A stretch of 37,379 nucleotides of DNA from an uncultured bacterium (GCA_964413525.1 CAYPTI010000004.1:1-37379); one strand, 5' to 3'. Shown: positions 11,849 through 36,840, counted from the first letter of the stretch. The notes: generated by a model not told the origin, from the letters alone. A program made the numbers and translations.

Positions 11849-12093
11849 CAGGGATCACTCCTGCGTTTTCGGATGGTGGCTTGAAAGGTTCCTTCCCGCT
11901 CCTCCAGTTCGATTAACTCGTGCGGTTCATTCTCCGACCAGCTGCGAAGGTCGTCGGGAAAGGCCGGATCGTCCGACAGCACGACGAGCCGGTCCCCGAT
12001 CTCCAGCTCCTCCAGCTTTCGTGAGGTCTTCACGATCGGGATCGGGCAGAGCAGTCCGGTTGTGTCGAGGCGACCGGCGGGTTGATCAGCCAA
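11848..12093 (-). CDS. TusA/SirA-family sulfurtransferase
   Basis: 81 aa. It has the signature [35 protein letters not shown] (CP-x-P active-site cysteine). The TTG start overlaps the upstream gene's stop by 8 nt. Confidence 0.8.
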
Positions 12094-12730: not shown

Positions 12731-12768
12731 CCGGGACCATTCGGACGCCGAGGGTGTCGAAACCAGGC

Positions 12769-13896
12769 TCAAGCGAGCACCTTCTCCGGTTGAACCCGGG
12801 CTGAAACCGCGGGATCCCGTTCGTACGGAAGCGGAGCTTCCTGAATCACGGATCCTCCCAGCATCCGACCCCCCCCGGTATAAAACACGGCAATCTGACC
12901 GCTCGATACGCCCTGCTCCGGCTCCCGAAGGACCAGCTCGTTCTGCGTATCCGAACCGGACCGGAGGGTGCAGGCAACCGGAGATCCGTTGTAGCGGATC
13001 TGAACCTGGCATTCCTCCGGGGGATCCTCGGTCAGCCAGTTGATCGGCCCGACCGTGATGTGACGCTGCTCGAGCCGATCCCGCTCGCCCACCACGAGGG
13101 CATTTTCCTCCGGCAGGATCTTCAGAACGAAGAGCGGGTTGTGGTGAGAAATCCCGAGTCCTTTTCGCTGACCGACGGTGTAGTTCATGATCCCGTCGTG
13201 TTCGCCGATAACCTCGCCGTCGATGTTCCGGATTTCGCCGGGCTCGGGCTCAACGTCCGTGTAGTCCCGGATGAACTGCTTGTAGTCCATGTTCGGGACG
13301 AAGCAGATCGACTGACTTTCCTGCTTATCGGCCACCAGAAGATCGTGTTCTCGGGCGTACGCCCGGACGTCGTCCTTCTCGAAATCCCCGATGGGGAACC
13401 ACACGTCATCCAGGTAGTTCCGGTTGACGAAGGCCAGGTAGTAGGATTGATCCTTCCCCTGATCGACTCCCCGGTAGAGGGCCGGTTCGCCGTCCTCGGT
13501 CCAGCGGCGGACGTAGTGTCCCATGGCGACGTAATCCCCACCGAGCTTCCGGATCTTCTCGACCAGGTAACCAATCTTGACGCTCCGGTTGCACCACACA
13601 CACGGGTTCGGTGTATGGCCTTTCATGTACCCCTCGACGAAGGGTTCAACCACCGATTGTTTGAACAGCTGTTCGACGTCCAGGGTGTAGTGCGGGATGC
13701 CGAACCGGTCGCACATTTGTTTGGCATCCATGAGGTCCTCGATGCTGCAGCAGGTCCGATCGTGCTGCGCTTCAAGGTCCCCGATCCGCATGGTGAATCC
13801 AAACAGATCCACGTCGGTTTTCGTCAACAACCGATGGGCCGTGACGGCGGAATCCAGCCCGCCGCTCATGCCCACGCCTACGGTGACCAAAGTCAT
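12769..13896 (-). CDS. mnmA: tRNA-specific 2-thiouridylase (tRNA s2U34 synthase)
   Basis: PP-loop VGVGMSGGLDSAV. Other motifs: CCSIEDL, GHTPNPCVWCN, GHYV, KDQSYYL, SQSICF. ATG at 13896; the track start at 13899 is TTG. Confidence 0.93.
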   Translation of the reverse strand: MTLVTVGVGMSGGLDSAVTAHRLLTKTDVDLFGFTMRIGDLEAQHDRTCCSIEDLMDAKQMCDRFGIPHYTLDVEQLFKQSVVEPFVEGYMKGHTPNPCVWCNRSVKIGYLVEKIRKLGGDYVAMGHYVRRWTEDGEPALYRGVDQGKDQSYYLAFVNRNYLDDVWFPIGDFEKDDVRAYAREHDLLVADKQESQSICFVPNMDYKQFIRDYTDVEPEPGEIRNIDGEVIGEHDGIMNYTVGQRKGLGISHHNPLFVLKILPEENALVVGERDRLEQRHITVGPINWLTEDPPEECQVQIRYNGSPVACTLRSGSDTQNELVLREPEQGVSSGQIAVFYTGGGRMLGGSVIQEAPLPYERDPAVSARVQPEKVLA

Positions 13897-20710: not shown

Positions 20711-22981
20711 TCAGGAGAAGTAAGCAAGCACTTTTTCGGTAAAGCTTCGGTCCACCGTCCGGCGGTCCACGTAATCGTCGGAAATCAGGTCCAGAAACCG
20801 GCTGGGCTGCTGCCGGGTGATCTCCCTGTCTACGGAACGCTCCCGAGCGCAGGTAAGGTAGAGTTCGTCCATGGCCCGAGTAATTCCCCGGTAGAACAAC
20901 CGGCGTTCCCGCTCCAGCCGATCGTATTCTCCCGATCGGGGTGATCGGCGAGGACAAATTCCCTCCTCCAGGCCGACGAACAATACAACGGGAAATTCCC
21001 GGTCGGACAGGGCAAACAGGCTCAACAGCTGCACCTCATCGTCCGACCGAGCTGAGCCGGACTGAGCTTCCCATTCGCGACGCCGGGCGAGCCGAACCAG
21101 ATCCTCCACCCCCCGGGACCCGTCAAACCGAGCTTCCGTTCGAATCCACGATTGGCAGTTCGAAAAATTGAGTTCACGAACGGACTGACCGGTTTCCTCG
21201 TACATCGAACGGATGGACGGAACCAGCTCCGCGGGGTGAGCCCCCCGCCGGAGGTCCCGATCCATCTCCCGGAGGCGATCGAAACAACGATCCAGTTGTT
21301 GAACGGTTGATGATTGAAATCGTTCCCAGGTCGTCCGTCGGAGTTCCTCTTCCTCAAGCAACCGAACCGGATTATAAACGTGTTCGATAAGGGCCTGCTC
21401 CGTGGCGTCCAGGATGCCCGGCTCGCCCCCCAGCGCCGTCAGGAGGGCCTCGTTCCACTCCGGAAGATTGTTGCGGACCGCCTCAGGGGCGTCGGTCACC
21501 CGGCCCGAGGAATCAAATTGAAGCTCCTCGGACCGAAACCGGGCAAGGGCTACAAGTACCTGAAAGACCGCGAGGACCGCTTCGGTCGAGGGCAGCGAAA
21601 AGAAGTCTCTTCCCATCCCGGCTTCCTGGACGGGGATACCCTGTTCCTTCAGGGTTTCCTCCAGGGGTTCTCGCAGATCACCGGACCGAAACAGCACCGC
21701 GAAGTCCCCGTAGCCATAACCATCCCTGGCGAGGCGCTCGATGGTGTGGCCGATGAATTCCCGTTCCTCCCGCTCGTCCCGGGACTCAAACACGGCAATG
21801 TTGTCCCCGTATTCAACGCCACCGTCTTCGGTCAGCCGACCGGGCTTGAGTTCGTCGACCTCCGAACCGCTCTCCGCCATCACGTCGTTTGCGGCCAGTA
21901 CAATCATCCCCCGGGACCGGTGATTCACGTCGATCGTCATGGTACTGGCCCCGGAAAAAACTTCCTTGAACCCGGACCGGTCCTCATCCGTCGTTCCGGA
22001 GGGTTCAAACTGGTGGTGATCCCCGAAGGCGGTCAGCTGTCCCTTCTCCCCCACGAGGCTCCTGATCAACTGAACCTGGGCGTTGTTCAGGTCGTACCAT
22101 TCATCAACCAGGAGGTGAGAAAAACGGTCGCGGAGATGCCGGCTCACCGGCTCGTCGGAGCGCATTAACTGCACCGTGATTTCGATCAGATCGTCAAAAT
22201 CCTGGACCCGGTTGGCCCGCTTTTCCTCCTGATAGGCTCCGTAGACCCGGGCCGCCTGTTCGTCCAGCTTGTGGTCGACGGTTTCAAGGGCCTTCTCCGG
22301 CGGGATCAGGTCGTGCCTGTACTCATTGATCCGATCCCTAACCTCGTGGCGCTGTGGAATATCGATGTCCAGCCGGTCCATGATCCGGGAAACCATGTCC
22401 CTTCGATCGGAAGGGTTCAGCAGGGAGATCCCTCTGACGTAGGCGTCGTCGAATCGCTCGACGAGGGTTCGGTCCTCCCCCGGAAGGGGTCGTTCCAGCA
22501 GCTGAAGGCAGGCCGAATACACGCTGGTGATCCAGCCCGTCTCGGGAAGCCGATTGACGATTCCCCGGACCACCATACCGGTTTCGGTCGAAAGATTTTC
22601 CGCCCCGGCCAGGAGAAGCTCCTCAACCCGGTTCTGGAGACTCGAAGCAGCCCGGCCGTTTGCGGCCAGCACAAGAATTCGGTCCAGAGGAACCCCGGAG
22701 AGGATCAGAAAAACAATTCGCCGACCGAGCAGAACCGTCTTCCCGGTCCCGGGTCCTCCTCGGACCAGGAACGACTCCTCTCCCGGTTCATGGAGGAGCC
22801 CCCTCAACTGTTCCCCGTCCAGAGGGGGAGGACCGCAAACCTGCCTCACGAGCAGACCCGCCAGGTCCGGATCGTCGAGCCCCTGAAGAAGTTCGGTGAA
22901 TCGATCCCTGAGGTCCCGGTTGTCAAGTTGATCGAGGTAGGTCTCCAACCGATCACGACAGGGGGGAGCGACGTACTTCAC
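20711..22981 (-). CDS. UvrD/PcrA/Rep-like SF1 DNA helicase, divergent motifs
   Basis: 756 aa with a GTG start overlapping the upstream stop (GTGA). Motifs: Q-like LDGEQLRGLL; motif I GGPGTGKT; Ia LAANGRAASSL; II LLVDEWYDLN; III AFGDHHQ; IV VNHRSRG; V SLFALSDREFPVVLFVGLEEGICP; VI RERRLFYRGITRAMDELYL. Confidence 0.85.
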   Translation of the reverse strand: MKYVAPPCRDRLETYLDQLDNRDLRDRFTELLQGLDDPDLAGLLVRQVCGPPPLDGEQLRGLLHEPGEESFLVRGGPGTGKTVLLGRRIVFLILSGVPLDRILVLAANGRAASSLQNRVEELLLAGAENLSTETGMVVRGIVNRLPETGWITSVYSACLQLLERPLPGEDRTLVERFDDAYVRGISLLNPSDRRDMVSRIMDRLDIDIPQRHEVRDRINEYRHDLIPPEKALETVDHKLDEQAARVYGAYQEEKRANRVQDFDDLIEITVQLMRSDEPVSRHLRDRFSHLLVDEWYDLNNAQVQLIRSLVGEKGQLTAFGDHHQFEPSGTTDEDRSGFKEVFSGASTMTIDVNHRSRGMIVLAANDVMAESGSEVDELKPGRLTEDGGVEYGDNIAVFESRDEREEREFIGHTIERLARDGYGYGDFAVLFRSGDLREPLEETLKEQGIPVQEAGMGRDFFSLPSTEAVLAVFQVLVALARFRSEELQFDSSGRVTDAPEAVRNNLPEWNEALLTALGGEPGILDATEQALIEHVYNPVRLLEEEELRRTTWERFQSSTVQQLDRCFDRLREMDRDLRRGAHPAELVPSIRSMYEETGQSVRELNFSNCQSWIRTEARFDGSRGVEDLVRLARRREWEAQSGSARSDDEVQLLSLFALSDREFPVVLFVGLEEGICPRRSPRSGEYDRLERERRLFYRGITRAMDELYLTCARERSVDREITRQQPSRFLDLISDDYVDRRTVDRSFTEKVLAYFS

Positions 22982-23496
22982 GAACTTCCCGGACCCCCGC
23001 CGGTCGCCGGCGTCTGTTCCCGATGTTCGTACCAGAAGTGATAGAATTCCGTCAGTTTCTCCATCAATTCCTGTTCCGCCGCCGGATCCAGCCGGAGGGG
23101 GACGCGGCCCTCGGGTGAATCGTCCTCCAGATAGATGAGTTCGCCCCGTTTGATCGGTTCAGCAAAATCGTGTTTAAGGATCCAGAGATACATCAACAGC
23201 TGCATGCGGTGGCCCTCAAAGGAACGTTCGTTGCGTCGTCCCGACTTCAGTTCGAGGACCACGGGCTCGCTGCTGTCGTCCCGGACGATAAAATCCGGGG
23301 CGCCCGAGGCGACGATCGGGGGATGCTCCAGCCGCCGGGTGAACAACCGGGACCCATCGTCCTGGTATAGTTTTTCGGGATACCCAAACAGGTGCCCGGC
23401 GGGGTCCTCGTCGAGTTCCTCGAGCACGACGTTCTGAACCACCGCGATCAGAACCACAATCAGTAACCCGAACGCGGTCAACAGAACGGGGTTCAC
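22978..23496 (-). CDS. membrane-anchored PD-(D/E)XK nuclease of RecB/Cas4 type (no Fe-S cysteines)
   Basis: 172 aa with a GTG start overlapping the upstream stop (GTGA). N-terminal hydrophobic helix NPVLLTAFGLLIVVLIAVV. Core motifs: APDFIV (D), VVLELKSG (E-x-K), RMQLLMYLWIL (QxxxY). Confidence 0.7.
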   Translation of the reverse strand: MNPVLLTAFGLLIVVLIAVVQNVVLEELDEDPAGHLFGYPEKLYQDDGSRLFTRRLEHPPIVASGAPDFIVRDDSSEPVVLELKSGRRNERSFEGHRMQLLMYLWILKHDFAEPIKRGELIYLEDDSPEGRVPLRLDPAAEQELMEKLTEFYHFWYEHREQTPATGGGPGSS

Positions 23497-23927
23497 GGGG
23501 CCGGTTGTCCGGATTCGGACAACTTGGATTCATGTTCTTCAAGCCATCGATCGGGGAAGTTGACGAACTGTCCGAACTCGTGGGGAGTCACCTTGAGTTC
23601 CGGACCATCCTCCCGGGCTTCAACGGGTATGACGGATCCCTCCTCTTCTCGGGACCCATCGGGAACCCCGGTCTCCTCGGGGGGATGGACTCGACCGCGA
23701 ACCTCCTCCGGGAAGAGGTCCTGCAGTTCTTCACATTCCGACCCGCGGATCCAGTCCTTGAACCCTTCCTTCCAGTAGTGGTGTTCGCCGGTGAACACCC
23801 GGTTTCGGATCGCCACACGGAGCAACGGCAATCGAAAGGGACCCAGTTGCCCGGGATCCGCTTCCGGATCGTCCTCGCCGGGTGGCACGGCGTGTACGTA
23901 CCATTGATCGGGTTGGGACCGGTTCAC
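23493..23927 (-). CDS. GYF_2 (DUF4339)-like domain protein with an acidic C-terminal half
   Basis: 144 aa with a GTG start overlapping the upstream stop (GTGA). QWYVHA...GQLGPFRLPLLRVAIRNRVFTGEHHYWKEGFKDWIRGSECEELQDLF fits the bacterial GYF_2 pattern (WY..G...GPf....l......i.....vW.eGm.dW....e...L). No signal peptide or TM helix. Confidence 0.6.
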   Translation of the reverse strand: MNRSQPDQWYVHAVPPGEDDPEADPGQLGPFRLPLLRVAIRNRVFTGEHHYWKEGFKDWIRGSECEELQDLFPEEVRGRVHPPEETGVPDGSREEEGSVIPVEAREDGPELKVTPHEFGQFVNFPDRWLEEHESKLSESGQPAP

Positions 23928-24178
23928 GAGTCCGTCCCCGTGGTCGGCTCCTGGTCTTCATCCCACGCTTCAAATTCCTCCAGATCATCCTCCGGAGGCT
24001 CCTCAACCTCACCATCCAGGGGATCGTCGACCGGCTCGTCCGGATCAAAATTTTCCTCCGGTACGTCGACCGCGGGGGGATCCTCCTCCGGGACTTCCTG
24101 GATCGGGTCGCCCCCGCAGCCGACCAGCACCAATCCGCCAAGCAGAACCAGACAACCAATCCTGATGAACCGGTTCAA
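23924..24178 (-). CDS. small acidic lipoprotein
   Basis: The TTG at 24178 lies 6 nt after AAAGGGGA. Signal peptide with lipobox (M)NRFIRIGCLVLLGGLVLVGC, then a D/E/P-rich mature part of about 64 aa. The longer track ORF (to 24388) would overlap the upstream gene and has no other start codon in the gap. Confidence 0.5.
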   Translation of the reverse strand: MNRFIRIGCLVLLGGLVLVGCGGDPIQEVPEEDPPAVDVPEENFDPDEPVDDPLDGEVEEPPEDDLEEFEAWDEDQEPTTGTDS

Positions 24179-24263: not shown

Positions 24264-25325
24264 TCACTCCAGAAAATCAAACACTCCGGTCTCGACGCGA
24301 AGTTCGTTTCCGTCGGTGTACATTGCGATGTGACCGGCCTGATCGGTTCGCTGGATCTGAGGCACGTCGGCCGACTCGAGTCGGTCAAGAACGGTCCGGG
24401 ACGGTCCCGGTGGGTTGGAGGTCGAAATTACGGCGTGCTGTGGATCAACCATCCCGAGCAGTTCCTCCGAGGTGGAGGGATGATAGCCGTGCTGACCCAC
24501 CTTCAGCACCTCCGACTCCAGGGTCTCGGCGTAATTCAGGACCAGTTCCCGCTCTCCACCCGGTTCCTCGGCCGGTTCGGTCGGGAGATCGGACATCAGG
24601 AGAAACCGCACGTCTCCATACTGGAGAAACAGAACGTGACTGGCGTCCTCGGGAAGAATGGCCTCGGCATCTCCATGGAGCACCCTGGTTCGAAGCCCGG
24701 CGCCGAGGTCAAGTTCCTGTTGGGGTTCCATAAACTCCTGGGGAACCTCATGTGCCTGAGCCTCCGCCTGGAGTCGGCGGTAGGAAAAGTTTTCAGCCGG
24801 AAACCCGGTCCGGAGGAGCCTTCCGACCTCGACGGCATCGTGGGCAATGAGGTCCGGCTGAGCCCCAACGTGATGGGAAATGGGGACGGTGGTTATCAGC
24901 GTATCAATCCGATCGATGCCGGTCAGCTGGAAGAACGGCAGGTACAGTTCGTAGGCCCAGTCATACGGGGGGACGTCGTCTCCGGAAGGGGTCGAGCCTT
25001 CCCCGCCATCCACCAGCGTGACCCGGTTGTCAGGGGTCTGGATCAATATCCCATCCCCGTACCCGACATCCATGAACACGACGGCCAGTTCCCCCGGCTG
25101 ACGGCCGGGGATCCGTCCATCGGGCTGGACGTTTGCGTCCGTGGGGAGTCCGGAACCGGCTCCCACATACCAGTTTACATAGGTCGGTGCGGCCATGTAC
25201 CAGAGCCACCCGGACAGGGCGAACAGAACCGCTACGAGTATCCAGCCGGTGAGGCTTCCCCCCGCGTCGGACGGGTCCGGATCAGCCGAGGCCGGGGAGT
25301 CAAACTCGTCGAACCGATCACTCAT
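24264..25325 (-). CDS. membrane-anchored ComEC-type MBL-fold protein with degenerate catalytic motifs (probable pseudo-enzyme)
   Basis: 353 aa with a TM helix (WILVAVLFALSGWLWYMAA). Colinear with the 297-1409 protein, but VFMDVGYGDG, TVPISHHVGAQ (replacing HxHxDH), MSDLPTE, KVGQHGYHPSTS and PPGPS replace the metal-binding motifs. Confidence 0.75.
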   Translation of the reverse strand: MSDRFDEFDSPASADPDPSDAGGSLTGWILVAVLFALSGWLWYMAAPTYVNWYVGAGSGLPTDANVQPDGRIPGRQPGELAVVFMDVGYGDGILIQTPDNRVTLVDGGEGSTPSGDDVPPYDWAYELYLPFFQLTGIDRIDTLITTVPISHHVGAQPDLIAHDAVEVGRLLRTGFPAENFSYRRLQAEAQAHEVPQEFMEPQQELDLGAGLRTRVLHGDAEAILPEDASHVLFLQYGDVRFLLMSDLPTEPAEEPGGERELVLNYAETLESEVLKVGQHGYHPSTSEELLGMVDPQHAVISTSNPPGPSRTVLDRLESADVPQIQRTDQAGHIAMYTDGNELRVETGVFDFLE

Positions 25326-25343: not shown

Positions 25344-26045
25344 TCATTCCACCACGGCCCGACCGCTGATGTCCTCGACGGTGACCGGGCCGATCCCGGA
25401 CACTTCCTGGAGATCGTCGAGATCCTCAAACGGGCCGTTCTCCTCCCGGTACGCAACGATCGCTTCCGCCGTGACGGATCCGATCCCGGTTAACTGGGTC
25501 AGGGTGGACTCGTCGGCGGTGTTTACATTAATTTCTTCCCCGGAGGTGGCCGAATCGCCTTCGGGACACGGTTCGTCCTCGTACTCCTGACCCACCGTAA
25601 AGTGTTCTTGCCAGTCCTCCACGTAGGTTGACCCGATCCCGCTGGCCCCTTCGAGCTGATCGAGACAGACAATCGGGTCGTCCAGCTGATCCCGGAACTC
25701 AATCAGGCTTTCAGCGCGAGATTGCCCGAGGTTTGGAACCCCCGCGTTGGTGAGTTCTTCCAGGGTTACTTCGTTGATGTTTACCTTCCGGGCGTACTCG
25801 ATCTCCGCCCGTCGCCCGGCGTCCACGCGCTCCACGGACAACTCGGTTTCCGGGACAAGGTCCGGGTCGTCCGGCTCCGACCGTTCCGCGGATTCCGCAA
25901 CCCGGTCGGCCGTCCCGGGAGGTCCCTCGCCCTCCATCATAAGCCCCGGGACGGCAAGTACCCCCAGAACGACCGCGATCAGAACCAGCACGTACTGCTG
26001 CGAGTTCACGGTCCAAGCCTCCATTCCGTTCCCGCTGGCCGGCAT
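25344..26045 (-). CDS. comEA: ComEA-type competence protein (TM anchor plus two helix-hairpin-helix DNA-binding modules)
   Basis: 233 aa with a TM helix (YVLVLIAVVLGVLAV). Module 1: KVNINEVTLEELTN...LGQSRAESLIEFR...LDQLEGASGIGSTY. Module 2: INVNTADESTLTQLTGIGSVTAEAIVAYREENGPFEDLDDLQEVSGIGPVTVEDI. Confidence 0.85.
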   Translation of the reverse strand: MPASGNGMEAWTVNSQQYVLVLIAVVLGVLAVPGLMMEGEGPPGTADRVAESAERSEPDDPDLVPETELSVERVDAGRRAEIEYARKVNINEVTLEELTNAGVPNLGQSRAESLIEFRDQLDDPIVCLDQLEGASGIGSTYVEDWQEHFTVGQEYEDEPCPEGDSATSGEEINVNTADESTLTQLTGIGSVTAEAIVAYREENGPFEDLDDLQEVSGIGPVTVEDISGRAVVE

Positions 26046-26457: not shown

Positions 26458-29400
26458 TTACAACCGAGCGTCGAATGCTTCTCCCTCCTGTTCGGTCACC
26501 ATACCGTTCTCGGTTTCGACAAACGGAGTGATGGACAATTCGTCGCCGTCGGAGCGCACGATTATCGCGTGGTCCCGGTCGGTCCGAAAAAGCTGCCCGT
26601 CATCATACCGTTCTGAAAGAGCCTCCCAGGTCGCGGTGATTTGTTCTTCCATGTCCTCCCCCTGAGGTCCCCGGATGTCGATGCGGTCGGCGGTGGACAG
26701 GACAACGAACTCGGGATCGACGGCGTCGTAAAACGGTTCGTAATAACTTTCCGACGCGGTCCCGTTTGACGGAACGAACAGGACGTCCGCTTCCAGTTGC
26801 CCCGCTCCGTACCGATCAAGCATCCAGTTCTGGGCGTCTTCCCGGATGTCCCCCGGAAGCAGGATCCGGGTCTCCCCGATTTCAACCATCAACACGACGG
26901 ATTCGTTTTCGGCCACCCGGAAGGTGTGCGGGCTTGATTCCGGTGGGTTCAGGGCGGTGATCCGGAAGGGTACCTCCTGCCCGTCAATGGTCAGGGTTTC
27001 GTCCCAGACTACATCTCCCTCCCGAGGACGGTAATACTCCGTTTCCTGTCGCCGGAGGGGTTCCCACATTCGTTTCCAGTTGTGAAAGTAATCGAATCGA
27101 AACCATTGAGCTTCCTGGTTTTCCTCCAGATAGGAATCACCGATGGCCGCCGTAAAATCGTCCAGCGAGGGTGAGGACCCGAGCCGGTCCTCCGGGAGGG
27201 GGCCGATCGCGGCCCGGACCACGAAGTGATTGGCCATGTACCCCATGCCTCCCAGCCGCTGGGGTTCGATCGACTGAAGTCCGAGCAAATCCAGTTCCTT
27301 GATTCCCTGCCTCAGAAAAAAATCCGACACCGCCAGACGGCCCTGATCCCGACGGTCGGGAAGGTTGTCCCGGTGATGCCAGTCCCACTGACGGGCCCCG
27401 GCGTTCAGCAACATGTTGGTTCCCCCGGGGGCCTGGACGGCAACGGCCGATCCGTACCCGACGTTCAGGGCCGTCAGCCGCACTTCCTCCGGCGGTGATT
27501 CGATAAACCAGAAGGAACCGTACAGAATCACTCCCGCCACGGAGAGCACGGCCACGAACGTTTTCGCGGGACTGGTGAGGGGGCGCCCGAGAAATTGACC
27601 CCAGAACCGCTTAAACCCCTCCAGTGAGGGGCGCCAGGCGATGAACAGCCCCAGCGCGCCGTAAAAGACGAGCAAATGCCAGAGGGTAAATTCCCGGACC
27701 GCCGGATAGGGAAACAGTTCAAACGAGAAATGAGACACCCACATGAACAGCCAGACGGCCAGAAAGTTGCCGGCGTTGAGAAGCAGGGCGAGCCAGTGCC
27801 CGACGACCGGAATCAATCCCATCAATCCCGCAAACAACCCGAGGGGAACGACAATCCCCACCAGGGGGATGGCGAGCAAGTTGGCGTAGATCCCCGCAAA
27901 GGGGTACTCGAGGAAGTAATAGGCGCTCAGGGGCCACATCATCCCGAGCTGGACGGCGAACTGGAGTCCGATGAAGTTCCGGAGGCTGGCCGGGATGTCC
28001 AGAAACCCGATTCCCCCCGCGATCCGGTGCCTGCGGTCGACATCAAACGCCCACCAGAACGTAGCCCCCCAGAACCCGAGATAGGGAAGATACACCACCG
28101 GCTGAAGAAACCAGTTCCAGTGGGCCATCAACAGATAAGTGGTGACCGCGGCGACCACCCAGAAAAGGAGGAAACTCAAGCCTCTGAGTTTCTGGAGCAC
28201 CCGGTCCACCGGTCCGCTGAGCAACACGAGGCAGAGCACCGCCGTGAAGGAGAGGGTGAACGACGCTTCGAACACGAGCTGCGGCTGAATCAATAGAATA
28301 ACTAATGCCGCGGCGGACAGTCCGACCATGGCCGAGTTCTTGAGACCCCGTTCGGAGTACGCGAAGACGATCAGAATCAGGGCCGTCATGATAAAGGCTC
28401 GCTGGGTGGAGGGACGGGCCCCCGTGAGGATGGTAAAGATCAGCAGAAGCACGACGATAAGGGGAGCGTAAATTTTTTTCGGCAGCCTGAGCCCGGCAAA
28501 CAGAGCCCAGAACGCTCCCGCCAGCACCCCGACGTGAAGCCCGGAAACCGCAAGCACGTGCATGGTTCCGGCGCCGCGGAACTCCTCGTTTACCAAATTT
28601 TTGAGAAAATTTTCTTCATGGCTCCGTACGTACTCCGGGATCTCCCCGGTTTGAAAGGGACTGAGGGTGAAATCCAGCCCCTCCCTCAATCCGAGCGTGG
28701 CCCCGCCCAGAAAGGCGGAATACGGGTAGGGCATGGTTTGCTTGATGACCTTCAACATCTCCGTTTGAAGCCCGAGGGCCCAGGCCACCATCCGATTGCC
28801 GGTGTTTTCCTCCAATCGCTCTACGTCGGTGGCAAACCACATGGCTCCGTAAATCCCCTGGTTGTGAAGAAACTGCTGGTAATCAAACCCATGCGGGTTG
28901 GTCCGGGGCATCGGTTCACTGATCGGGCCGGTGAACCGAAGCCGATCGGCGTAAATGGAGTTATCGGCGGCCTCGGAAAAGGAAAGATCGTGGTCCTGAT
29001 AGGATTGAATCCGGAGGAGCAACTGGCCCCGGTCGACCGGATGGGGCTCCCCCTCCTCTTCATACCGGATCCGTTCGGGTTCAACGGTCAGCGTCACTTC
29101 TCCGTCCTCGGTGACCTCCGGGGCTTCGACCACGGTCCCCTCGACCGTTCGGGGGTCGTCAAACCCGTCGGACAGATGCTCGTCCAGGCTGTTGGGGTAC
29201 AGGTGATCCAGAGCCATCGAATAGCGCCCCCACCCGACCAGGAAGGCAATGAGACCGATGATGCCGAAGACGAACAGGGTCTTGCGCCAGCCAACGACGT
29301 GGAGGACGTAGGCCCCAACCCCTCCGATCAGAACGGACCCGCCAACCGCCCCCCACAGTCCGCTCATTTCCTCCGGAAACAGGGGGAAAAACACGGCGTA

Positions 29401-29472
29401 CACGATGCCGGCGATGAAAGTATACGTGACGATAAGGAGAAGCTTGATCAGCCGATCCTGATCGGGTTTCAC
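26458..29472 (-). CDS. comEC: ComEC/Rec2 DNA-internalisation channel protein, enlarged, with a degenerate C-terminal MBL domain
   Basis: 1004 aa with a GTG start overlapping the upstream stop (GTGA). N-terminal TM helices are followed by an OB-like segment (VEGTVVEAPEV...LTVEPERI...GQLLLRIQ). The multi-TM competence core carries GTMHVLAVSGLHVGVLAG. The C-terminal ~340 aa are MBL-like but lack the His/Asp ligands. Confidence 0.9.
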   Translation of the reverse strand: MKPDQDRLIKLLLIVTYTFIAGIVYAVFFPLFPEEMSGLWGAVGGSVLIGGVGAYVLHVVGWRKTLFVFGIIGLIAFLVGWGRYSMALDHLYPNSLDEHLSDGFDDPRTVEGTVVEAPEVTEDGEVTLTVEPERIRYEEEGEPHPVDRGQLLLRIQSYQDHDLSFSEAADNSIYADRLRFTGPISEPMPRTNPHGFDYQQFLHNQGIYGAMWFATDVERLEENTGNRMVAWALGLQTEMLKVIKQTMPYPYSAFLGGATLGLREGLDFTLSPFQTGEIPEYVRSHEENFLKNLVNEEFRGAGTMHVLAVSGLHVGVLAGAFWALFAGLRLPKKIYAPLIVVLLLIFTILTGARPSTQRAFIMTALILIVFAYSERGLKNSAMVGLSAAALVILLIQPQLVFEASFTLSFTAVLCLVLLSGPVDRVLQKLRGLSFLLFWVVAAVTTYLLMAHWNWFLQPVVYLPYLGFWGATFWWAFDVDRRHRIAGGIGFLDIPASLRNFIGLQFAVQLGMMWPLSAYYFLEYPFAGIYANLLAIPLVGIVVPLGLFAGLMGLIPVVGHWLALLLNAGNFLAVWLFMWVSHFSFELFPYPAVREFTLWHLLVFYGALGLFIAWRPSLEGFKRFWGQFLGRPLTSPAKTFVAVLSVAGVILYGSFWFIESPPEEVRLTALNVGYGSAVAVQAPGGTNMLLNAGARQWDWHHRDNLPDRRDQGRLAVSDFFLRQGIKELDLLGLQSIEPQRLGGMGYMANHFVVRAAIGPLPEDRLGSSPSLDDFTAAIGDSYLEENQEAQWFRFDYFHNWKRMWEPLRRQETEYYRPREGDVVWDETLTIDGQEVPFRITALNPPESSPHTFRVAENESVVLMVEIGETRILLPGDIREDAQNWMLDRYGAGQLEADVLFVPSNGTASESYYEPFYDAVDPEFVVLSTADRIDIRGPQGEDMEEQITATWEALSERYDDGQLFRTDRDHAIIVRSDGDELSITPFVETENGMVTEQEGEAFDARL

Positions 29473-30304: not shown

Positions 30305-31504
30305 TTACCCGCTCTCGCCCAGTTCCGATTCACCCTGAGCGATCTGAAAAGCATTATAAAGTAAGTCCCCGGTCATCTGAGCAACCAGACGCAGTTTCAG
30401 TTTGTCCGCGTTGCCCAGCTCCTCCCCGGTTTCTTTTTCCGTCGCCCGGATAACCCCGATGGTTTTCCCCCGTGAACGAATGGCCGCCGCCACCCCGGCT
30501 CCCTTCCGGGGACGGTCGATGATGTTCGCCTGGCCCAGTTCAGCAACCGTTCCGACCTCACCCGAACCGATGTCGACCGTGAGGTTCTGAAGCCGGTCGC
30601 GCTCCATCCACTGGTCCTCCTCCAGTCCCATCTGGCCGACAAGCTGATCCGGGTTGTCGGTGGAAACCAGAAACACCATGGTCTGGCGGACCTGAAGCAT
30701 GTTGTAGACCGAATTTACCATGTACTTCAGAAGCGCTTCCGGATCGAGGGTTTCCCCCACCCGCTTGGCGTAATCAATTAATTCAAAGTACTCATCCGGA
30801 GTCAGCGGTCCGGTCGACGTCTCCTCCTTCGCCCGTTCAAGCTTTTCCTCGTATTGGTTCGTGATTTCCGACCGGGCCAGGCTGATCCGGTTCGTGATCA
30901 GATCCTCCCACCGTCGCTGCAGGAACAGGACCACCAGGACGGCGATCACCAGGAGAACGGCGGTACCCAGGGCAAGTTGATTGACGGTGGAATACCAGTG
31001 CCGCCAGAGAAACTCCCGGTCAATCCCGATCATCAAGCCCCCGTAGACGGTACCGTCGGCGGTAACGGGCAGGACGATCTCCCGAACGTCGAGGTCCTCC
31101 CCCTGAACATCCTCACGGGACTCGATCACAAGCCCCTCCGTATCGACAAACCGTTCCTCCTCCAGCATGGACCGATCGCCGGGGGAAACGTCTTCGTGGA
31201 CCGAACTGAGGACGAAGTTCCCCCGATCGTCCAGCACGGCCATGTACGCAATTCCAAAGTCTTCTCGACGGGTGACAAGCTGATCGGTGGCTGTATTTAA
31301 GGTTGTAAAATTGGCCGAAAGGAAGGGTTCAAACAGGGAGTAGGCAATCATCTCACTGACGTCATCTACCGTGTCGGAGGCTCGCTGGCTCGCGGTCTGA
31401 TAGCTGAAGAAATAGGCTGTAAAAGCTAAGAGAAGGATGAGTGCCACAACGAATGCCAGAATGGAATTTCGCACCTGGGAAGCGAGATCCGACCCATCGT
31501 CCAC
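30305..31504 (-). CDS. membrane sensor-like protein: TM, Cache/PDC-like periplasmic domain, TM, coiled linker, GAF domain, no output domain
   Basis: 399 aa with a GTG start 38 nt after the secretin stop. TM1: ILAFVVALILLLAFTAYFF. Extracytoplasmic segment IAYMAVLDDRGNFVLSSV...LPVTADGTVYGGLMIGI is typical of Cache-like sensors. TM2: LALGTAVLLVIAVLVVLFL. The C-terminal GAF-like block is LDPEALLKYMVNSVYNMLQVRQTMVFLV...VAAAIRSRGKTIGVIRA. I saw no HisKA, GGDEF or HTH motifs. Confidence 0.65.
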   Translation of the reverse strand: MDDGSDLASQVRNSILAFVVALILLLAFTAYFFSYQTASQRASDTVDDVSEMIAYSLFEPFLSANFTTLNTATDQLVTRREDFGIAYMAVLDDRGNFVLSSVHEDVSPGDRSMLEEERFVDTEGLVIESREDVQGEDLDVREIVLPVTADGTVYGGLMIGIDREFLWRHWYSTVNQLALGTAVLLVIAVLVVLFLQRRWEDLITNRISLARSEITNQYEEKLERAKEETSTGPLTPDEYFELIDYAKRVGETLDPEALLKYMVNSVYNMLQVRQTMVFLVSTDNPDQLVGQMGLEEDQWMERDRLQNLTVDIGSGEVGTVAELGQANIIDRPRKGAGVAAAIRSRGKTIGVIRATEKETGEELGNADKLKLRLVAQMTGDLLYNAFQIAQGESELGESG

Positions 31505-31542: not shown

Positions 31543-34500
31543 TCAACGATTCGATTCAGTCTGGGTATCCCGTTCCACCGTTACGTTCACGTCCCGTTCA
31601 ATCTCTCCGTTATCGCTTGTATCAGACTCCAGTCCCTCCTCGACGTTGGCGGCCGTCCGGGGAGTAATGTCTTCCCCGTCGTTCGCCGAGGACGCCTCGG
31701 CACGGTCACCGGAGGGATCGTAGTTCTCGCCCGACGGGACGGTTTCGGCCTGCGTTCGCGATTCACCGGAATCCAGAACCATGACTTCCTGCAACACCGA
31801 ATCGATGTAATCGGAATCTACGCCCCGGTCGATCAGAAGGTTCCGGACCACGTCAAAGTCCTCAAACCGAATTCTCAAATCTCGCTCGTGAGAGAGGTCG
31901 GTGGCGATTTGAGCGTCAATGTGACGGACCCGGCTAAGCTGCCGGGGAGTGGCCGAGTTCACGGGGATCGACAGTTCGACCCGATCCATGATCTGCTCCA
32001 AAACGAGCGGGTCCACGCCGGGCAACCTGAGCAGATCGCTGAGGCTCGTGAAGGGTCCGGCGTTTCGTCGGTAATCATCGGCCGCCGCCGCCAGCTGCGC
32101 CGGGTCGGAGGCGTCGCTCAGGCTGAACAGCCGCTCCAGTTGTTGGAAGGAATCGGTGTTCACGTTGACCGACAGTCCGCTGCTGAACTGAGCCTCCTCG
32201 CCGATCCGTTCCTCGGCCAGTCGATCGACTTCCTCCGCCTCCTCCATGACGTGGGGGGTGAGAAAGACGACCAGTTCGTTCTGGACAACATCCTCCGAGT
32301 AGCTGCTGAACGCGTGTCCCAGCACAGGGATGTGACGCAGGAAGGGAACCCCGGTTTCCTGGATCTCGACGTCGTCCTGGATCAACCCGCCGACCACGAT
32401 CGTTTGGCCGTCCTCCACGTACAGTTTGGACTGACTGGAGCGACTTTCGGTGGTGAGGGTTTCCTCCTGGGGACTAACGAATATTTCGTTGATGATGTTC
32501 AGGTTCAGCAACACGTCCCGGCTCTTGGTGATGGTAGGAGAAATTTCCAGCACGGTCTCCGCCACCACCTCGGTCAGCGTGGTGGTCACCACTCCTCCTT
32601 CGGAGACTTCCGTCTCCTCGGCGAACCGGGTCTCCTCCAGCCGAATCACGCCCTGCTCATTGTTCAGGGTGGAGATCTGCGGCCGGGCCACGATTTCGCC
32701 GTCAAGGTCTTCTTCCAGGAAGTCAAGGATGACCTGGAGGTCCTCCTGCTGGAAAAGACCGGTGAAGACTCGATCCGCAAACTGCGGGAGCGCAGGATCC
32801 GCTGATACGTCGGGACCGCCGGGGCTAGGACCGGTGGGGGGATCCGAACCAAACTCAACCCGCAAGTCCTCATTCAGGTAGTTCCAGAAGGGGTTGAACT
32901 CGAATCCCTCCTCCAGGTCATATTCGGCCAGTACCCCTTCGACGTAGACCTGCTTGGCCCGGACGTCAAATTGCTTGATCAGGTCCCTCACCATCGACCG
33001 GTTGTTCCTCGGCGTGGCAAACACCACCCGGTTCAGGTCCGGATCGGCGGTGAGTGAGACGTTAATGTTCAGATCCTCCACCACCTCGGACGTCCGGGTG
33101 ACGAGATCCTCGGGCCCGTCGGTCGGACCTTCCGGCGACGGAAGGGCTCCGCGTTCGGCGTCGTCGTCCAGCAGGCCCGAGATCACGTCAACCACGTCGT
33201 GGGCTCTCCGATAGTTCAACTCCACGTGACCGATCGTGTACCCCGACTTATCAATTTGCTCCAGAAATTGCCGGGTCTCGTCCTGACGGTTTGAAGGCAC
33301 CAGGAGGGAAATCCGGTCGGGGGTGACGTGAAGCAAAGTCGCGTACTGGAGTTCGTCCAGCTGGTCCTCAAGATCCTCGGCGTCCAGGTTGGTCGGAAAA
33401 TACGTGATGACGGAATGATCGAAAAAGGCGTTGCTGTCGAGTTTTTGAATGATCTCGCGCAGCATCGACGCATCGGAGGGCTGCAGGGAAAAGACCGCCC
33501 GCAGTTCGTCCGAGTATACGACACGGGGAAGAGCCCGTTCCCGTTCGAGGGTGTCGTCGATGTTCTGGAAGTACTCCTCCAGTTCGCCGACCAGGGTGGA
33601 CACGTCCACGAACTGGGGGGAGTACACCACGATCTCCCGACCCGACTGATCGATCTCGGTGGAGTCGAGCCGGGACATGATCTCGCGGAACTCGTCGATT
33701 TCCTCTTTCGTCGACGAACGCAGGAGCAGAAGGTTCCGTTCCGGGATCGCCGTCTCCACGTCCACGCCCGGGAACCGTCCGACAAACGAGTTGACCCGTT
33801 CCACGCCGAGAACCTGGGCCGGATACCACTCCCAGTAGTAGTCCTCCAGCTCAACGTAGGAGTCCTCGATCTCCTGGATGATCTCCCGGGCGAAGGAACG
33901 GAAGTTGCTGGGACCGATCAGCATGATCGTGTCGGTTTCTTCAAGGATGATGGCATTCATCTGGGTAACCACTTCTTCGAGGTTGGCGGCATCGGTTCCT
34001 TCGGTCTCTTCCTGGGGAGCAAAGAAGAAGACTTCCTCAGTCTCATCAACGTCCTCCGCCACCCCGATGATCTGGTTGAGCTTCTCCAGCACCACCGACG
34101 GATCGGCTCGTTCGATTTCAATCAGGTCATACGAGAAACTTGAGAGATCGGACGAATCGATCTGGTTCAGCTGGTTGAGGGCCGACTCAAGGGCCTCCTG
34201 TTCCGGGGACGATAGAAGGAAGGCGTCAAGGTATTCAATCGTGCTGAACGTCTGGACGTTGCCCATCCGGTTGATCAGCGATTGGGTTTGTTCAAACGGA
34301 ATGTTTTCCGCCTGATACCACTCAAACTTCTGCCGGTCCATGTAATCGAGGCCCATCTCCTGAATCCGTTCGATCATGGCTTCGGCCGTGTCCAGAAGGT
34401 CGGGAGACCCGAAGATCAGAATTTGCTGCAGTTCGGGGATGGCGATGATCTGCCCTCGTTCAAGGAGCTGTTCAATATTGACCTGCCGTTCCTCCTGGAT

Positions 34501-36840
34501 GATCTGACGGATTTCGTCCGGGTCGGGGTCGGTAAATGTGAGATCCCCGATATTCACGCCGGTGGTAATGTCCATCCCCAGGATTCGGTTCACCTGGGCG
34601 GCGATCTGTTCGGCGTCGAAGCCCTCCATGTCAATAAACCGGAAGTTCTCCTGCAGCCGGCCCGGCTGATCCATGATCTCCACCAGCTCGACCACTCGTT
34701 CGACCATCGCGGTTTCTCCGTACACAACGATCTCATTGGTCCGGGGGTGGCTGATAATTCGTCCTTGTTCCCCGAGGGGAAGATCCGACCGCAGACGGTC
34801 CGCGAGATCGTCGTTGTTGATCGAAAGAGCCTCGTGCTCGAGTTCAATAACCCGGTATTCAAACCCCTCGTACACCCCCCGCTGGATGGCTTCCTCCCGA
34901 GCGACCACCGTAACGACGTCCTCGTCCATGACCCTCGCAAATCCCTGGGTTTCCAGGATGGTGTCCATGGCCCGAAGCGGCGTGACGTCCTCGAGGTGAA
35001 CGGTGACCGAGCGCTGTTCGTCATCGGCCTCCAATTCCTGAAGGACCAGGTTGATGTTGGAAATCTCCGCCAGGGTTCGAAGAACGTCCGAAAGGGGCGC
35101 GTCCTGAAGAGAGACGCTGATGACGTTCGGCCGGCCGAAGATCGTGAAGGTGGTGGAGGGTTCGCCCTCGATTTCCAGCAGGGACGCCCGAACCTCGTTG
35201 ACCTCCCGATCCGGGGCAATTCGGTAGACATCCACTTCCACCCGACCGTCGTCGTTTGTTTCCTGGCGCCGGCTGAGGCCCGGCTGGACCTCGTTTACGT
35301 CCAGAAAAGCGCCCCGGGTCAGAGATTTAAAGGTGACCATGACGTCGGGGACCGGGTTCCCGAACCGGTCCTGAACTTCAACCATCATTGGATTCGGAGG
35401 CCGCTCGCCGAACAGGGTCTCCTGCCGATCTCCGGCGACCGTCTGGATGTCAACCGGTTCGGCCGCCTCTACCTCCAGCCGGTAGTTCACCAGGAGATCG
35501 TATTCTTCCACGGAAGCGACGATTTCAACCGGTCCGGAGGTTTCCTTCGATCGGGCATGGAACCGAACGCGACCGTCTTCATCGGTTCGTAACTCCAGCG
35601 ATTCCCCCTGAAATTCATCCGGCGATTCACCCAGTTCTACGTCTCCATGACGAACGGAAACCTCCACCCGTTCGTCGTCCAGCGGTTCCCCGTCCTCGTC
35701 CACGAATTCGGCGATCATGGGATCGGAGGTCTCCCGGGGGATCCCGAGCGACTGACCATGGCCTTCGACCCGCTGAAGCTGGTAATACAGATCGGGGTGA
35801 ACCTGCCGGAAGATGTCCTCAATCTCCGGATCCTCGTCCGCCCCGGGGAAGATCTCCTCCACGTCGAAGATGTCGATAACGACACGATTACCCGGGGTGT
35901 CACGGTAAATTTGAAAATTGTCATGCCACTGTTCCAGGTCCAGGACCACGCGGGTCGTATTAATGGGATCCACCCGGTACTGACTGTGGCGCACCCGGAT
36001 GACGTCCTTCAGCTCGATGGGAAGGGGGGGGTCGGGAAGAGCATTGAGGGCGTTCGGGATGTCAATTACCAGCATGGCCGGATCAAAAATTTCCGACACC
36101 ACGTAATCAAGGGAGCGCGATCCCCGGATCGAGATCCGGACTCGGTCGGGATACTCCCGGGCTTCCACTCCGTACACGGCTCGGGTCCGACCCTCCGGTT
36201 GATCGTAATCCGTCCGAACATGACGAATTACTTCGGAGGGTTCGGCCTGGATCTCAGGGGGTTCCTTCGGCGCTTCCTGATCGTCCACGGTCGCGAACGG
36301 AGAATCCGGACGAACCTCCGCCGGATTCTGGACGGACCCCAATTGAATGTCGTTGGGATCCTCCCGATCCGCCAGCTCCCCAAGCTCCTCTTCGGCTTCT
36401 TCAGCCGCCTCATCCTCGGGAAGGTCAACCAGCTCCTCAAGGGTCTCACGAAGCTGTTGAGCCTGGGTATGGTCGGGATCCTCATCCAGAGCCCGACGAA
36501 CCCGATCGAGAGCCAGATCGTATTCTTCGTCAATAAAGTGGTTGACTGCCTCGGAGTAAAAAACCTCGGCCGAAGTCCCTTCCTGGGCTTGTTGCGTTTC
36601 CTGCGCCTGAATGGCCGTTGGATGGAAAAAGAACGTTAAACAGAACAAACTCGCGAGTAGCCCCACGAGCAAAAACAGGGACGAATATGAACCCCCGGGC
36701 GTTGTACGGTGGAATAATACCAATCCGATGGCTCCCTTCGGCTTCGTCAATGGTGCCTTCACCGATACGGAATCAGCCCCGGTGGAGGCGTGTTTCCCGG
36801 CCGCTTGTGCGGCTCGTGTGGTCATCACAATTGTCGCCAT
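31543..36840 (-). CDS. pilQ: giant type IV pilus / competence secretin (PilQ-like) with TPR-like, AMIN, Ig-like, STN/N0 and about 8 ring domains, a secretin core and C-terminal ComEA-like HhH modules
   Basis: 1765-aa ORF. Hydrophobic signal-like segment LFLLVGLLASLFCLTFFF..AIQAQ. AMIN-like: RVRISIRGSRSLDYVVSEIFDPAMLVIDIPNA...TRVVLDL. Two Big_1-like beta domains: MMVEVQDRFGNPVPDVMVTFK...DDGRVEVDV. N0/STN: ISVSLQDAPLSDVLRTLAEISNINLVL. Repeated Secretin_N-like units: ...PRTNEIVVYGE...VELVEIMD. Secretin core: IVARPQISTLNNEQGVI...GQTIVVGGLIQDDVEIQETGVPFLRHIPVLGHAF...ELVVFLTPHVM. Start uncertain: a TTG at codon 40 behind AAGGGAG is an alternative. Confidence 0.85.
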   Translation of the reverse strand: MATIVMTTRAAQAAGKHASTGADSVSVKAPLTKPKGAIGLVLFHRTTPGGSYSSLFLLVGLLASLFCLTFFFHPTAIQAQETQQAQEGTSAEVFYSEAVNHFIDEEYDLALDRVRRALDEDPDHTQAQQLRETLEELVDLPEDEAAEEAEEELGELADREDPNDIQLGSVQNPAEVRPDSPFATVDDQEAPKEPPEIQAEPSEVIRHVRTDYDQPEGRTRAVYGVEAREYPDRVRISIRGSRSLDYVVSEIFDPAMLVIDIPNALNALPDPPLPIELKDVIRVRHSQYRVDPINTTRVVLDLEQWHDNFQIYRDTPGNRVVIDIFDVEEIFPGADEDPEIEDIFRQVHPDLYYQLQRVEGHGQSLGIPRETSDPMIAEFVDEDGEPLDDERVEVSVRHGDVELGESPDEFQGESLELRTDEDGRVRFHARSKETSGPVEIVASVEEYDLLVNYRLEVEAAEPVDIQTVAGDRQETLFGERPPNPMMVEVQDRFGNPVPDVMVTFKSLTRGAFLDVNEVQPGLSRRQETNDDGRVEVDVYRIAPDREVNEVRASLLEIEGEPSTTFTIFGRPNVISVSLQDAPLSDVLRTLAEISNINLVLQELEADDEQRSVTVHLEDVTPLRAMDTILETQGFARVMDEDVVTVVAREEAIQRGVYEGFEYRVIELEHEALSINNDDLADRLRSDLPLGEQGRIISHPRTNEIVVYGETAMVERVVELVEIMDQPGRLQENFRFIDMEGFDAEQIAAQVNRILGMDITTGVNIGDLTFTDPDPDEIRQIIQEERQVNIEQLLERGQIIAIPELQQILIFGSPDLLDTAEAMIERIQEMGLDYMDRQKFEWYQAENIPFEQTQSLINRMGNVQTFSTIEYLDAFLLSSPEQEALESALNQLNQIDSSDLSSFSYDLIEIERADPSVVLEKLNQIIGVAEDVDETEEVFFFAPQEETEGTDAANLEEVVTQMNAIILEETDTIMLIGPSNFRSFAREIIQEIEDSYVELEDYYWEWYPAQVLGVERVNSFVGRFPGVDVETAIPERNLLLLRSSTKEEIDEFREIMSRLDSTEIDQSGREIVVYSPQFVDVSTLVGELEEYFQNIDDTLERERALPRVVYSDELRAVFSLQPSDASMLREIIQKLDSNAFFDHSVITYFPTNLDAEDLEDQLDELQYATLLHVTPDRISLLVPSNRQDETRQFLEQIDKSGYTIGHVELNYRRAHDVVDVISGLLDDDAERGALPSPEGPTDGPEDLVTRTSEVVEDLNINVSLTADPDLNRVVFATPRNNRSMVRDLIKQFDVRAKQVYVEGVLAEYDLEEGFEFNPFWNYLNEDLRVEFGSDPPTGPSPGGPDVSADPALPQFADRVFTGLFQQEDLQVILDFLEEDLDGEIVARPQISTLNNEQGVIRLEETRFAEETEVSEGGVVTTTLTEVVAETVLEISPTITKSRDVLLNLNIINEIFVSPQEETLTTESRSSQSKLYVEDGQTIVVGGLIQDDVEIQETGVPFLRHIPVLGHAFSSYSEDVVQNELVVFLTPHVMEEAEEVDRLAEERIGEEAQFSSGLSVNVNTDSFQQLERLFSLSDASDPAQLAAAADDYRRNAGPFTSLSDLLRLPGVDPLVLEQIMDRVELSIPVNSATPRQLSRVRHIDAQIATDLSHERDLRIRFEDFDVVRNLLIDRGVDSDYIDSVLQEVMVLDSGESRTQAETVPSGENYDPSGDRAEASSANDGEDITPRTAANVEEGLESDTSDNGEIERDVNVTVERDTQTESNR

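Follow-up and report, generated by a model that had tools for sequence, protein, structure and literature searches.

A two-piece, membrane-anchored Cas4/RecB-type nuclease coupled to a divergent UvrD-family helicase, encoded beside DNA-uptake genes in an uncultured bacterium

Cas4-like nucleases are known to be paired with UvrD-type helicases, both as UvrD-Cas4 fusions and as unfused uvrD/cas4-like operons, mostly in Clostridiales (Hudaiberdiev et al. 2017, PMC5704561). UvrD-family motors move 3'->5' (PMC5704561), and Cas4 enzymes, in the work of Zhang et al. (2012) as cited in that paper, are 5'->3' exonucleases or endonucleases of single-stranded DNA (ssDNA). AddA, AdnA and RecB similarly unite a UvrD-like superfamily 1A (SF1A) motor with a RecB-family nuclease that carries an N-terminal cysteine helix. 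Here we analyse a cassette of four genes at positions 20711-24178 (minus strand) of a 37,379-nucleotide stretch of DNA from an uncultured bacterium (GCA_964413525.1 CAYPTI010000004.1:1-37379); we refer to the whole stretch as the window. The enzyme encoded by this cassette is a two-piece, membrane-anchored nuclease with a divergent UvrD-family motor, produced from one operon as three polypeptides with AddA/AdnA-type domain content. The two domains are translationally coupled here and, unlike AddA, AdnA and RecB, the enzyme has a membrane tether and lacks both a fused subunit of at least 1000 amino acids (aa) and a second subunit. Like the pairs of Hudaiberdiev et al., it combines a Cas4/PDDEXK_1 nuclease with an SF1 UvrD-family helicase outside CRISPR loci and in a non-defence context, but its nuclease is split, is anchored by a transmembrane (TM) helix, has lost the iron-sulphur (Fe-S) cysteines and is linked to uptake genes; the word 'transmembrane' has 0 occurrences in PMC5704561. 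It differs from soluble single-chain Cas4 in being made of an N-terminal piece (N-half) and a TM-anchored C-terminal piece (C-half). A literature search found no paper on a split or membrane-anchored Cas4, or on a Cas4 linked to pilus or competence genes. The pairing of UvrD with a Cas4-like protein is known; what appears to be new is the split, membrane-anchored nuclease and its linkage to DNA-uptake genes.

Several proteins that handle incoming DNA also invite comparison. The best structural match, the cyanobacterial ACE1 (PMC12094033; PDB 9iac/9iab), is a Cas4-family nuclease limiting incoming DNA; unlike the nuclease described here, it consists of one soluble chain, about 266-269 residues long in the solved PDB chains, and is co-encoded and acts with a long-A prokaryotic Argonaute, and there is no Argonaute here. 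The ComFA-ComFC-ComEC system of Firmicutes (PMC12663950) likewise includes a cytoplasmic ATP-driven motor of a helicase family that is genetically tied to the ComEC channel, and offers a proposed analogy for the pulling of ssDNA; in contrast, ComFA is an SF2 DEAD-box protein rather than an SF1 UvrD-like one, its complex with ComFC and ComEC has no nuclease partner, and the link described here is one of gene neighbourhood. EndA of S. pneumoniae, NucA of B. subtilis and the nuclease of the ComEC metallo-beta-lactamase (MBL) domain (PMC8579336) are membrane-associated nucleases that are encoded or act with the uptake machinery; they act outside the cytoplasmic membrane and have ββα-Me or MBL folds, whereas the present enzyme is of the PD-(D/E)XK type and most likely cytoplasmic.

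The four open reading frames (ORFs) of the cassette encode an 84-aa acidic lipoprotein (23924..24178, TTG start), a 144-aa protein in which a GYF_2 domain and an acidic linker precede the nuclease N-half (23493..23927, GTG start), the 172-aa nuclease C-half, which has an N-terminal TM helix followed by a Cas4/RecB-type core (22978..23496, GTG start), and a 756-aa UvrD/PcrA-like SF1 helicase (20711..22981, GTG start). They are coupled by three GTGA stop/start overlaps (23924-23927, 23493-23496 and 22978-22981), and AAAGGGGA lies 6-7 nucleotides 5' of the TTG start of the lipoprotein gene. Because many other genes of the window (the trp operon, comEC and others) also have 4-base overlaps and GTG or TTG starts, we read these junctions as operon-style coupling and not as a signature specific to the cassette. 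A sequence-only reading of the window had proposed the four minus-strand ORFs with their GTGA junctions and non-ATG starts, and we re-derived these at the same coordinates. Its descriptions of three of the products also held: a D/E-rich lipoprotein with the lipobox LVGC (by composition and lipobox), a TM-anchored RecB/Cas4-type nuclease with a D...ELK...QxxxY core and no Cas4 cysteines (on which profiles, alignment and model agree), and a divergent SF1 UvrD-like helicase with non-consensus motifs (by its Pfam match, its scores far below equivalog cut-offs and its altered ssDNA motifs).

The C-half matches PDDEXK_1 (E 2.1e-7) and Cas_Cas4 (E 1.6e-6; 28.7 bits against a cut-off of 22.7), and scores 43.8 bits against the Cas4 equivalog TIGR00372, under the 65-bit cut-off. 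Its catalytic residues are D68, E82-x-K84 and Q99-xxx-Y103; in a 32-sequence alignment D68, K84, Q99 and Y103 are invariant and E82 is nearly so. The TM anchor (23425..23493, minus strand) spans about residues 2-24 and has a mean Kyte-Doolittle hydropathy of 2.59 over 19 residues. An AlphaFold2 (AF2) model of the C-half built from the 32-sequence alignment (pLDDT, the predicted local distance difference test score, 91) has a long N-terminal helix (residues 3-29) and a Cas4/RecB-type core, for which the best Foldseek matches in the PDB are ACE1 (first), type I-C Cas4, AdnA, SSO0001 and AddA. All four Fe-S cysteines are missing from the window nuclease, which has Phe at the N-terminal site and no C-terminal CxxCx5C; relatives keep both. 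Some Cas4 proteins are reported to be active without the Fe-S cluster.

A word-index search with the nuclease alone returned only the query, and an exhaustive HMMER search of 1.84 billion representatives returned about 10 relatives of the C-half. These are 170-196 aa long and have an N-terminal TM helix, G-PD, E/D-x-K and Q-xxx-Y motifs and a C-terminal CxxCx5C. A profile search added 249 proteins, mostly from Chloroflexi and mostly labelled 'Dna2/Cas4 domain-containing' or 'Cas4'. Two metagenome contig scans and one viral contig scan confirmed no relatives, and a plasmid search (tblastn with P0127) found one distant PD-(D/E)XK gene, on a Pseudomonas megaplasmid and in an uninformative context.

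Several lines of comparison give good support to the view that the 172-aa protein makes up just the C-terminal portion of a Cas4/RecB-family nuclease that is split between two genes, and whose N-terminal helix is predicted to be encoded in the upstream GYF_2 protein. In one relative, L004, the small ORF directly upstream of the C-half reads INASELGTFLYCRRAWWYQ and then continues into a TM helix; this is the canonical N-terminal helix of Cas4, AddB and AdnA, bearing the first cysteine of the cluster. The corresponding motif of the window, LKVTPHEFGQFVNFPDRWLEEHE (23529..23597, minus strand; residues 111-133 of the GYF_2 protein), aligns with small upstream ORFs of L011, L013, L012, L009, L004 and L005. 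The L011 counterpart reads KVTPHELWKFGNCPLFWWEER, so that a Phe in the window replaces the first Fe-S Cys, in agreement with the loss of the three C-terminal cysteines. In L004, L009, L011, L012 and L013 the C-half is directly preceded by the N-half, as a small ORF or as a frame without annotation; in L005 the N-half lies one gene away. When a hidden Markov model (HMM) was built from the six relatives with the window left out, the window motif was the sole significant match (E 3.4e-4) among 764 six-frame ORFs, the next best having an E value of 1.7. The HMM also places an N-half immediately upstream of the C-half in L016, which had no part in model building (E 1.1e-5).

The two pieces also complement each other against known profiles. 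Taken by themselves, the N-halves of L004 and L005 align with the opening ~45 positions of Cas_Cas4 and PDDEXK_1. Joining the L004 N-half and C-half without the TM segment gives a chimera whose uninterrupted match to Cas_Cas4 covers positions 4-158 of 160 and scores 67.7 bits, where the C-half by itself scores 54.3. A profile made from seven such chimeras aligns over its full length with the type I-C Cas4 8d3l (E 1.4e-10) and also detects the AdnA motif TLSPSTLQMLTDCPLRWLLERH. When the window chimera was used in a phmmer search of the PDB, the alignment did not reach into the N-half, as that of the seven-chimera profile did. The flanks of L007, L010, L014 and L017 yielded no N-half. Taken together, the profiles suggest that N-half and C-half would assemble into one nuclease. 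Defining the split TM-anchored Cas4-like family by a C-half with an N-terminal TM helix and a nearby upstream N-half ORF with the motif [IV]-[TS]-x-[SH]-E-[LF]...C-x-R-x-W, we found this architecture in the window and in L004, L005, L009, L011, L012, L013 and L016. A single nuclease fold made from two gene products, with a TM helix or a two-helix hairpin at the split point, is unusual for the Cas4/RecB family, and it provides a structural explanation for the widespread Chloroflexi proteins of ~170-180 aa that are annotated as 'Dna2/Cas4 domain-containing'.

Automated annotation misses the N-half, which is left unannotated, lost to a call on the wrong strand or masked by a GYF_2 label. In L016 the gene caller overlooked the N-half ORF (7678-7995, plus strand) and predicted in its place a 79-aa ORF on the other strand (7744-7983). 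N-halves are probably under-annotated in general.

Basic residues flanking a membrane helix mark its cytoplasmic side (the positive-inside rule). In all 31 aligned relatives the 15 residues that follow the TM helix include 2-7 K/R, against 0-2 on the preceding side, and the family topology is predicted to be N-out/C-in. The N-halves of the Chloroflexi type end in a TM helix of their own, which gives a hairpin with the C-half and leaves both soluble parts on the same side of the membrane. For the window nuclease we infer that the catalytic domain is on the cytoplasmic face, because its N-half partner and the coupled helicase carry no signal peptide or other export signal; the presence of an Fe-S cluster in relatives also favours this placement.

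The helicase matches the Pfam families UvrD-helicase (E 7.6e-37) and UvrD_C (E 1.5e-26), and its best identity in a collection of 5.8 billion proteins is 25-30%. Residues of the ATP site are kept, namely the Walker A K, DE, the motif III Q and the R of motifs IV and VI, seen as GTGKT, VDEW, GDHHQ, NHRS and GITRA. The motifs that contact ssDNA (Ia, Ib, III and V) are heavily changed: TFTNKAA to AANGRAA, TFHS to SVYS, GDxDQSIYxWRGA to GDHHQFEPSGTT, and HAAKGLEF to FALSDREF. The protein also has an N-terminal extension of ~42 aa and a 2B region that cannot be recognised, and no Tudor domain was found at its C-terminus (no PF21196 match; the protein ends ~21 aa past motif VI). Scores against the PcrA, UvrD and Rep equivalogs are 242, 194 and 218 bits, for cut-offs of 911, 1144 and 951. 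With scores so far under these cut-offs, altered ssDNA motifs and no Tudor domain, we rejected a housekeeping PcrA, UvrD or Rep. The L009 helicase is far more canonical, but it too has the N-terminal extension and, like the window protein, two insertions in the segment from motif Ia to motif Ib; these features suggest that the two may form a dedicated helicase subfamily. When genome contigs were scanned with the helicase, the only matches were two distant loci of housekeeping PcrA/UvrD type, neither of which has a nuclease close by.

Membership of AddAB or AdnAB was also rejected, as the helicase is 756 aa long, has no nuclease domain and scores below the cut-offs: 62.8 and 47 bits against the AddA equivalogs (cut-offs about 707 and 860) and 24.5 bits against RecB (cut-off 696). 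As the sequence-only reading had anticipated, searches with PADLOC and equivalog profiles gave no match to a complete known defence system or to AddAB.

Two further parts of the cassette, the acidic lipoprotein and the GYF_2 domain, were met in the window's lineage alone and not in the examined relatives, and count as lineage-specific additions. The 84-aa lipoprotein has the signal peptide MNRFIRIGCLVLLGGLVLVGC, the lipobox LVGC and 33% D+E in its mature part; it matched no Pfam or PADLOC family, and is also predicted as a gene on Logan contig L003. It appears to resemble the lipobox and acidic linker of a ComEA-like lipoprotein of L009 (2095-2628, plus strand) without the helix-hairpin-helix (HHH) domain, and could be a remnant of such a protein or a periplasmic polyanion. 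The GYF_2 domain (23724..23849, minus strand; residues 27-68 of the 144-aa protein) is recognised by Pfam just over threshold (E 2.9e-6; 27.4 bits against a gathering score of 25.8), and a single-sequence AF2 model of the whole protein was uninformative (pLDDT 34). The GYF_2-like N-terminus proposed earlier is borne out by this match, whereas its standing as an independent fourth component is not, since the protein ends in part of the nuclease. In eukaryotes, proline-rich peptides are the ligands of GYF domains. The N-half of L013 (about 2140-2310, plus strand) has a proline-rich tail, RRPPRPPVPPPPVRG, and the window N-half is joined to a GYF_2 domain; tail and domain may reflect a common adaptor interaction.

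To examine gene neighbourhoods we took the five closest relatives of the window nuclease, picked by sequence alone; flanks were readable in four of them, L012 being too short. In all four, type IV filament or competence genes occur within two genes of the nuclease. L009 has the order: protein with three HHH_3 domains, 344-aa MBL, ComEA-like lipoprotein, N-half, C-half, UvrD helicase (cut by the contig end). In L014 a pseudopilin gene (4-nucleotide overlap) is followed by the C-half and a 354-aa MBL; in L011 a prepilin peptidase, the N-half, the C-half and a TPR protein follow one another; and in L013 the order is Flp pilin, prepilin peptidase, N-half, C-half. The first L009 gene (1-960, plus strand), upstream of the MBL gene, encodes a protein that is anchored in the membrane and bears three ComEA-type HHH_3 domains in tandem; the ComEA-like lipoprotein of that locus has a single one.

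The window nuclease itself lies close to a TM-anchored ComEC-type MBL paralogue (24264..25325, minus strand, 353 aa), ComEA (25344..26045, minus strand, with an HHH_3 domain) and ComEC (26458..29472, minus strand, with DUF4131 and Competence domains and a C-terminal MBL domain without metal ligands). Compared with one another, the MBLs from the window, L009 and L014 are homologous over their full length (E ~1e-39), and they match the C-terminal domain of ComEC. The GC content of the uptake-linked loci ranges from 30% to 65%, which indicates that they come from different, unrelated organisms. That uptake genes should stand beside all five loci (the window and four relatives) by chance is very unlikely; this we infer from a rough estimate that such genes take up <1% of a genome, and not from a computed statistic. 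The sequence-only reading had made conservation of the four-gene cassette and of its competence linkage in relatives a test of its proposal: the linkage does recur in unrelated relatives (L009, L011, L013 and L014), but the quartet itself does not.

On this repeated gene neighbourhood, a functional link between the nuclease and DNA uptake is moderately supported. We consider the cassette to encode an AddA-like helicase-nuclease tethered to the membrane, which would work with the type IV filament/ComEA/ComEC uptake apparatus and act on incoming DNA from inside, and put the probability of this reading at about 0.5. The substrate would be linear DNA emerging at the inner membrane face, delivered by ComEC. 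In classical systems transforming strands enter 3' end first; since UvrD motors run 3'->5', a tethered SF1 motor that the nuclease keeps close to the channel would draw the entering ssDNA inwards. The Cas4-type nuclease would trim or degrade this DNA, and the outcome might be processing for recombination, nucleotide salvage or gatekeeping of the DNA that is kept. Degradation or gatekeeping is favoured over simple pulling, as it is the nuclease and not the helicase that is the constant partner of uptake genes. A limiting role is also favoured by findings in S. elongatus, where transformation rises when a Cas4-like nuclease or UvrD is lost (PMC10653904); this comparison is tempered by the S. elongatus Cas4-like protein being probably of the soluble ACE1 type. 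Of the function first proposed from the sequence, a membrane-tethered helicase-nuclease acting on incoming DNA, the tethered PD-(D/E)XK nuclease coupled to a UvrD-like helicase stands, while replacement of the ComEC nuclease or an EndA-like role is unlikely; a ComFA-like or barrier role may still apply.

These results need to be weighed against several observations that count against a role in uptake. A much larger clade of the family, the Chloroflexi type, is not found beside uptake genes or helicases, and even among the five loci considered above the helicase is adjacent in only two. Because its ssDNA-contact motifs are so altered, whether the window helicase acts as a translocase is uncertain; insertions comparable to those it has in common with L009 also occur sporadically at the same site in ordinary PcrA homologues. 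The window C-half has 0 K/R and five D/E after its TM helix, so that its own sequence leaves its orientation ambiguous. The window is a long co-directional series of unrelated housekeeping genes, in which adjacency alone would mean little. The functional evidence consists of gene neighbourhood at five loci, four of them short metagenomic contigs.

Several of these points would fit a general DNA-repair or recombination helicase-nuclease, a miniature, membrane-associated counterpart of AddA whose proximity to comEA and comEC reflects chromosomal packing or loose co-regulation. Chloroflexi-type members adjoin genes for SSB, a translin-like protein, nadK and recN rather than pilus genes, AdnA and the AddA nuclease domain are among the structural matches, the window is a core-chromosome region in which many unrelated genes run in the same direction, and repair roles have been proposed for unfused uvrD/cas4-like operons (Hudaiberdiev et al., PMC5704561). 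This explanation leaves the membrane anchor unaccounted for, however, and sits poorly with the four closest relatives with readable flanks, all of which were drawn by sequence rather than by context and all of which lie near uptake or pilus genes, and with L009, which repeats the MBL-ComEA-nuclease-helicase order; we regard it as the strongest competitor, with perhaps one chance in four of being correct. In the Chloroflexi-type loci the pair follows genes for SSB, a DUF3467 protein and a translin-like protein (L004 4223-6534; L016 6374-8516; L005 4422-6519), and nadK and recN are found just downstream of the split nuclease in L004 and L005; other Chloroflexi-type members stand among unrelated genes. 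For this clade the context suggests a role in DNA metabolism.

A stand-alone nuclease-helicase defence against phages or plasmids, separate from the uptake machinery, is improbable. PADLOC models do match parts of the cassette (Cas4, E 6e-13; GajB, E 7e-40; DruK, weakly), UvrD-Cas4 fusions occur in defence contexts (PMC5704561), and ACE1, the top structural match, is a Cas4-family partner of Argonaute. Yet matches to GajB are generic for UvrD helicases, and the window contains no GajA, reverse transcriptase, Argonaute, cas1/cas2 or CRISPR array; the composition of the locus is native and its setting that of a core genome without a defence island, none of the viral contigs scanned has a relative, and plasmids gave one distant match. 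Individual systems were rejected in turn: Gabija, as the GajB models match at E 7e-40 as they would any UvrD helicase and the window has no GajA-like OLD/TOPRIM gene; DRT and a mobile element; a defence island, given the native composition and the core-chromosome setting; and a CRISPR adaptation module, as there are no cas genes among the annotated neighbours and a repeat search found no CRISPR array in the window.

The state of the MBL domains bears on a further alternative. Where active enzymes have [ST]HxDxDHxGG and VGHHGS, the C-terminal MBL domain of ComEC reads QSIEPQRLGG and VPSNGT, and the MBL paralogue (24264-25325) reads TVPISHHVGA and VGQHGY; the metal motifs are lost in both, as the sequence-only reading had argued, and are intact in the L009 and L014 orthologues of the paralogue. 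Both ComEC-type MBL domains are degenerate (26458-27495 and 24264-25325, minus strand), and another enzyme may degrade the non-imported strand. That the split nuclease does so itself, from the periplasm and in the manner of EndA or NucA in place of the dead ComEC nuclease, as had been suggested, is very improbable: the missing metal ligands of both MBL domains would fit this reading, and the acidic flank after the TM helix and the lost Fe-S cysteines of the window C-half would ease export, but the required N-half is on a protein without a signal peptide, the coupled helicase depends on ATP of the cytoplasm, an N-out/C-in topology is predicted for all 31 relatives, most of which have an Fe-S cluster, the nucleases of L009 and L014 lie beside intact MBLs, so that the association does not track MBL loss, and the ComEC MBL domain to be replaced is extracellular (PMC8579336).

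The wider setting of the cassette is that of a core chromosome, with rpmE, prfA, murA, the trp operon and hisIE on one side and comEA, comEC, ndk and a giant secretin on the other, and its GC and third-position GC (GC3) are the same as those of neighbouring genes. Rfam gave no match in the window, and promoter and terminator scans of the window returned background levels only. The secretin (31543..36840, minus strand, 1765 aa) has AMIN, Big_1, STN, Secretin_N and Secretin domains and, at its C-terminus, a ComEA-type HHH_3 domain (residues 1557-1621, after the secretin domain); such a joining of a DNA-binding module to an outer-membrane channel is unusual. Two large ORFs have no Pfam family at the thresholds used: 30305-31504 (minus strand, 399 aa), between ndk and the secretin gene, and 12086-13012 (minus strand, 308 aa).

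Little is known of how transforming DNA fares at the inner membrane face except in Firmicutes, which use ComFA and ComFC there. A tethered nuclease that is co-encoded with ComEA, ComEC-type MBLs and pilins would be a concrete, testable candidate for this inner-face step, whether import, trimming, salvage or gatekeeping. More tentatively, and with the odds against it, the split nuclease, together with the UvrD-like motor where one is present, might be an unrecognised part of the type IV filament/ComEC uptake machine in several uncultured lineages: a counterpart of ComFA/ComFC on the cytoplasmic face that would reel in and cut the entering strand, and so decide whether it is recombined or consumed.

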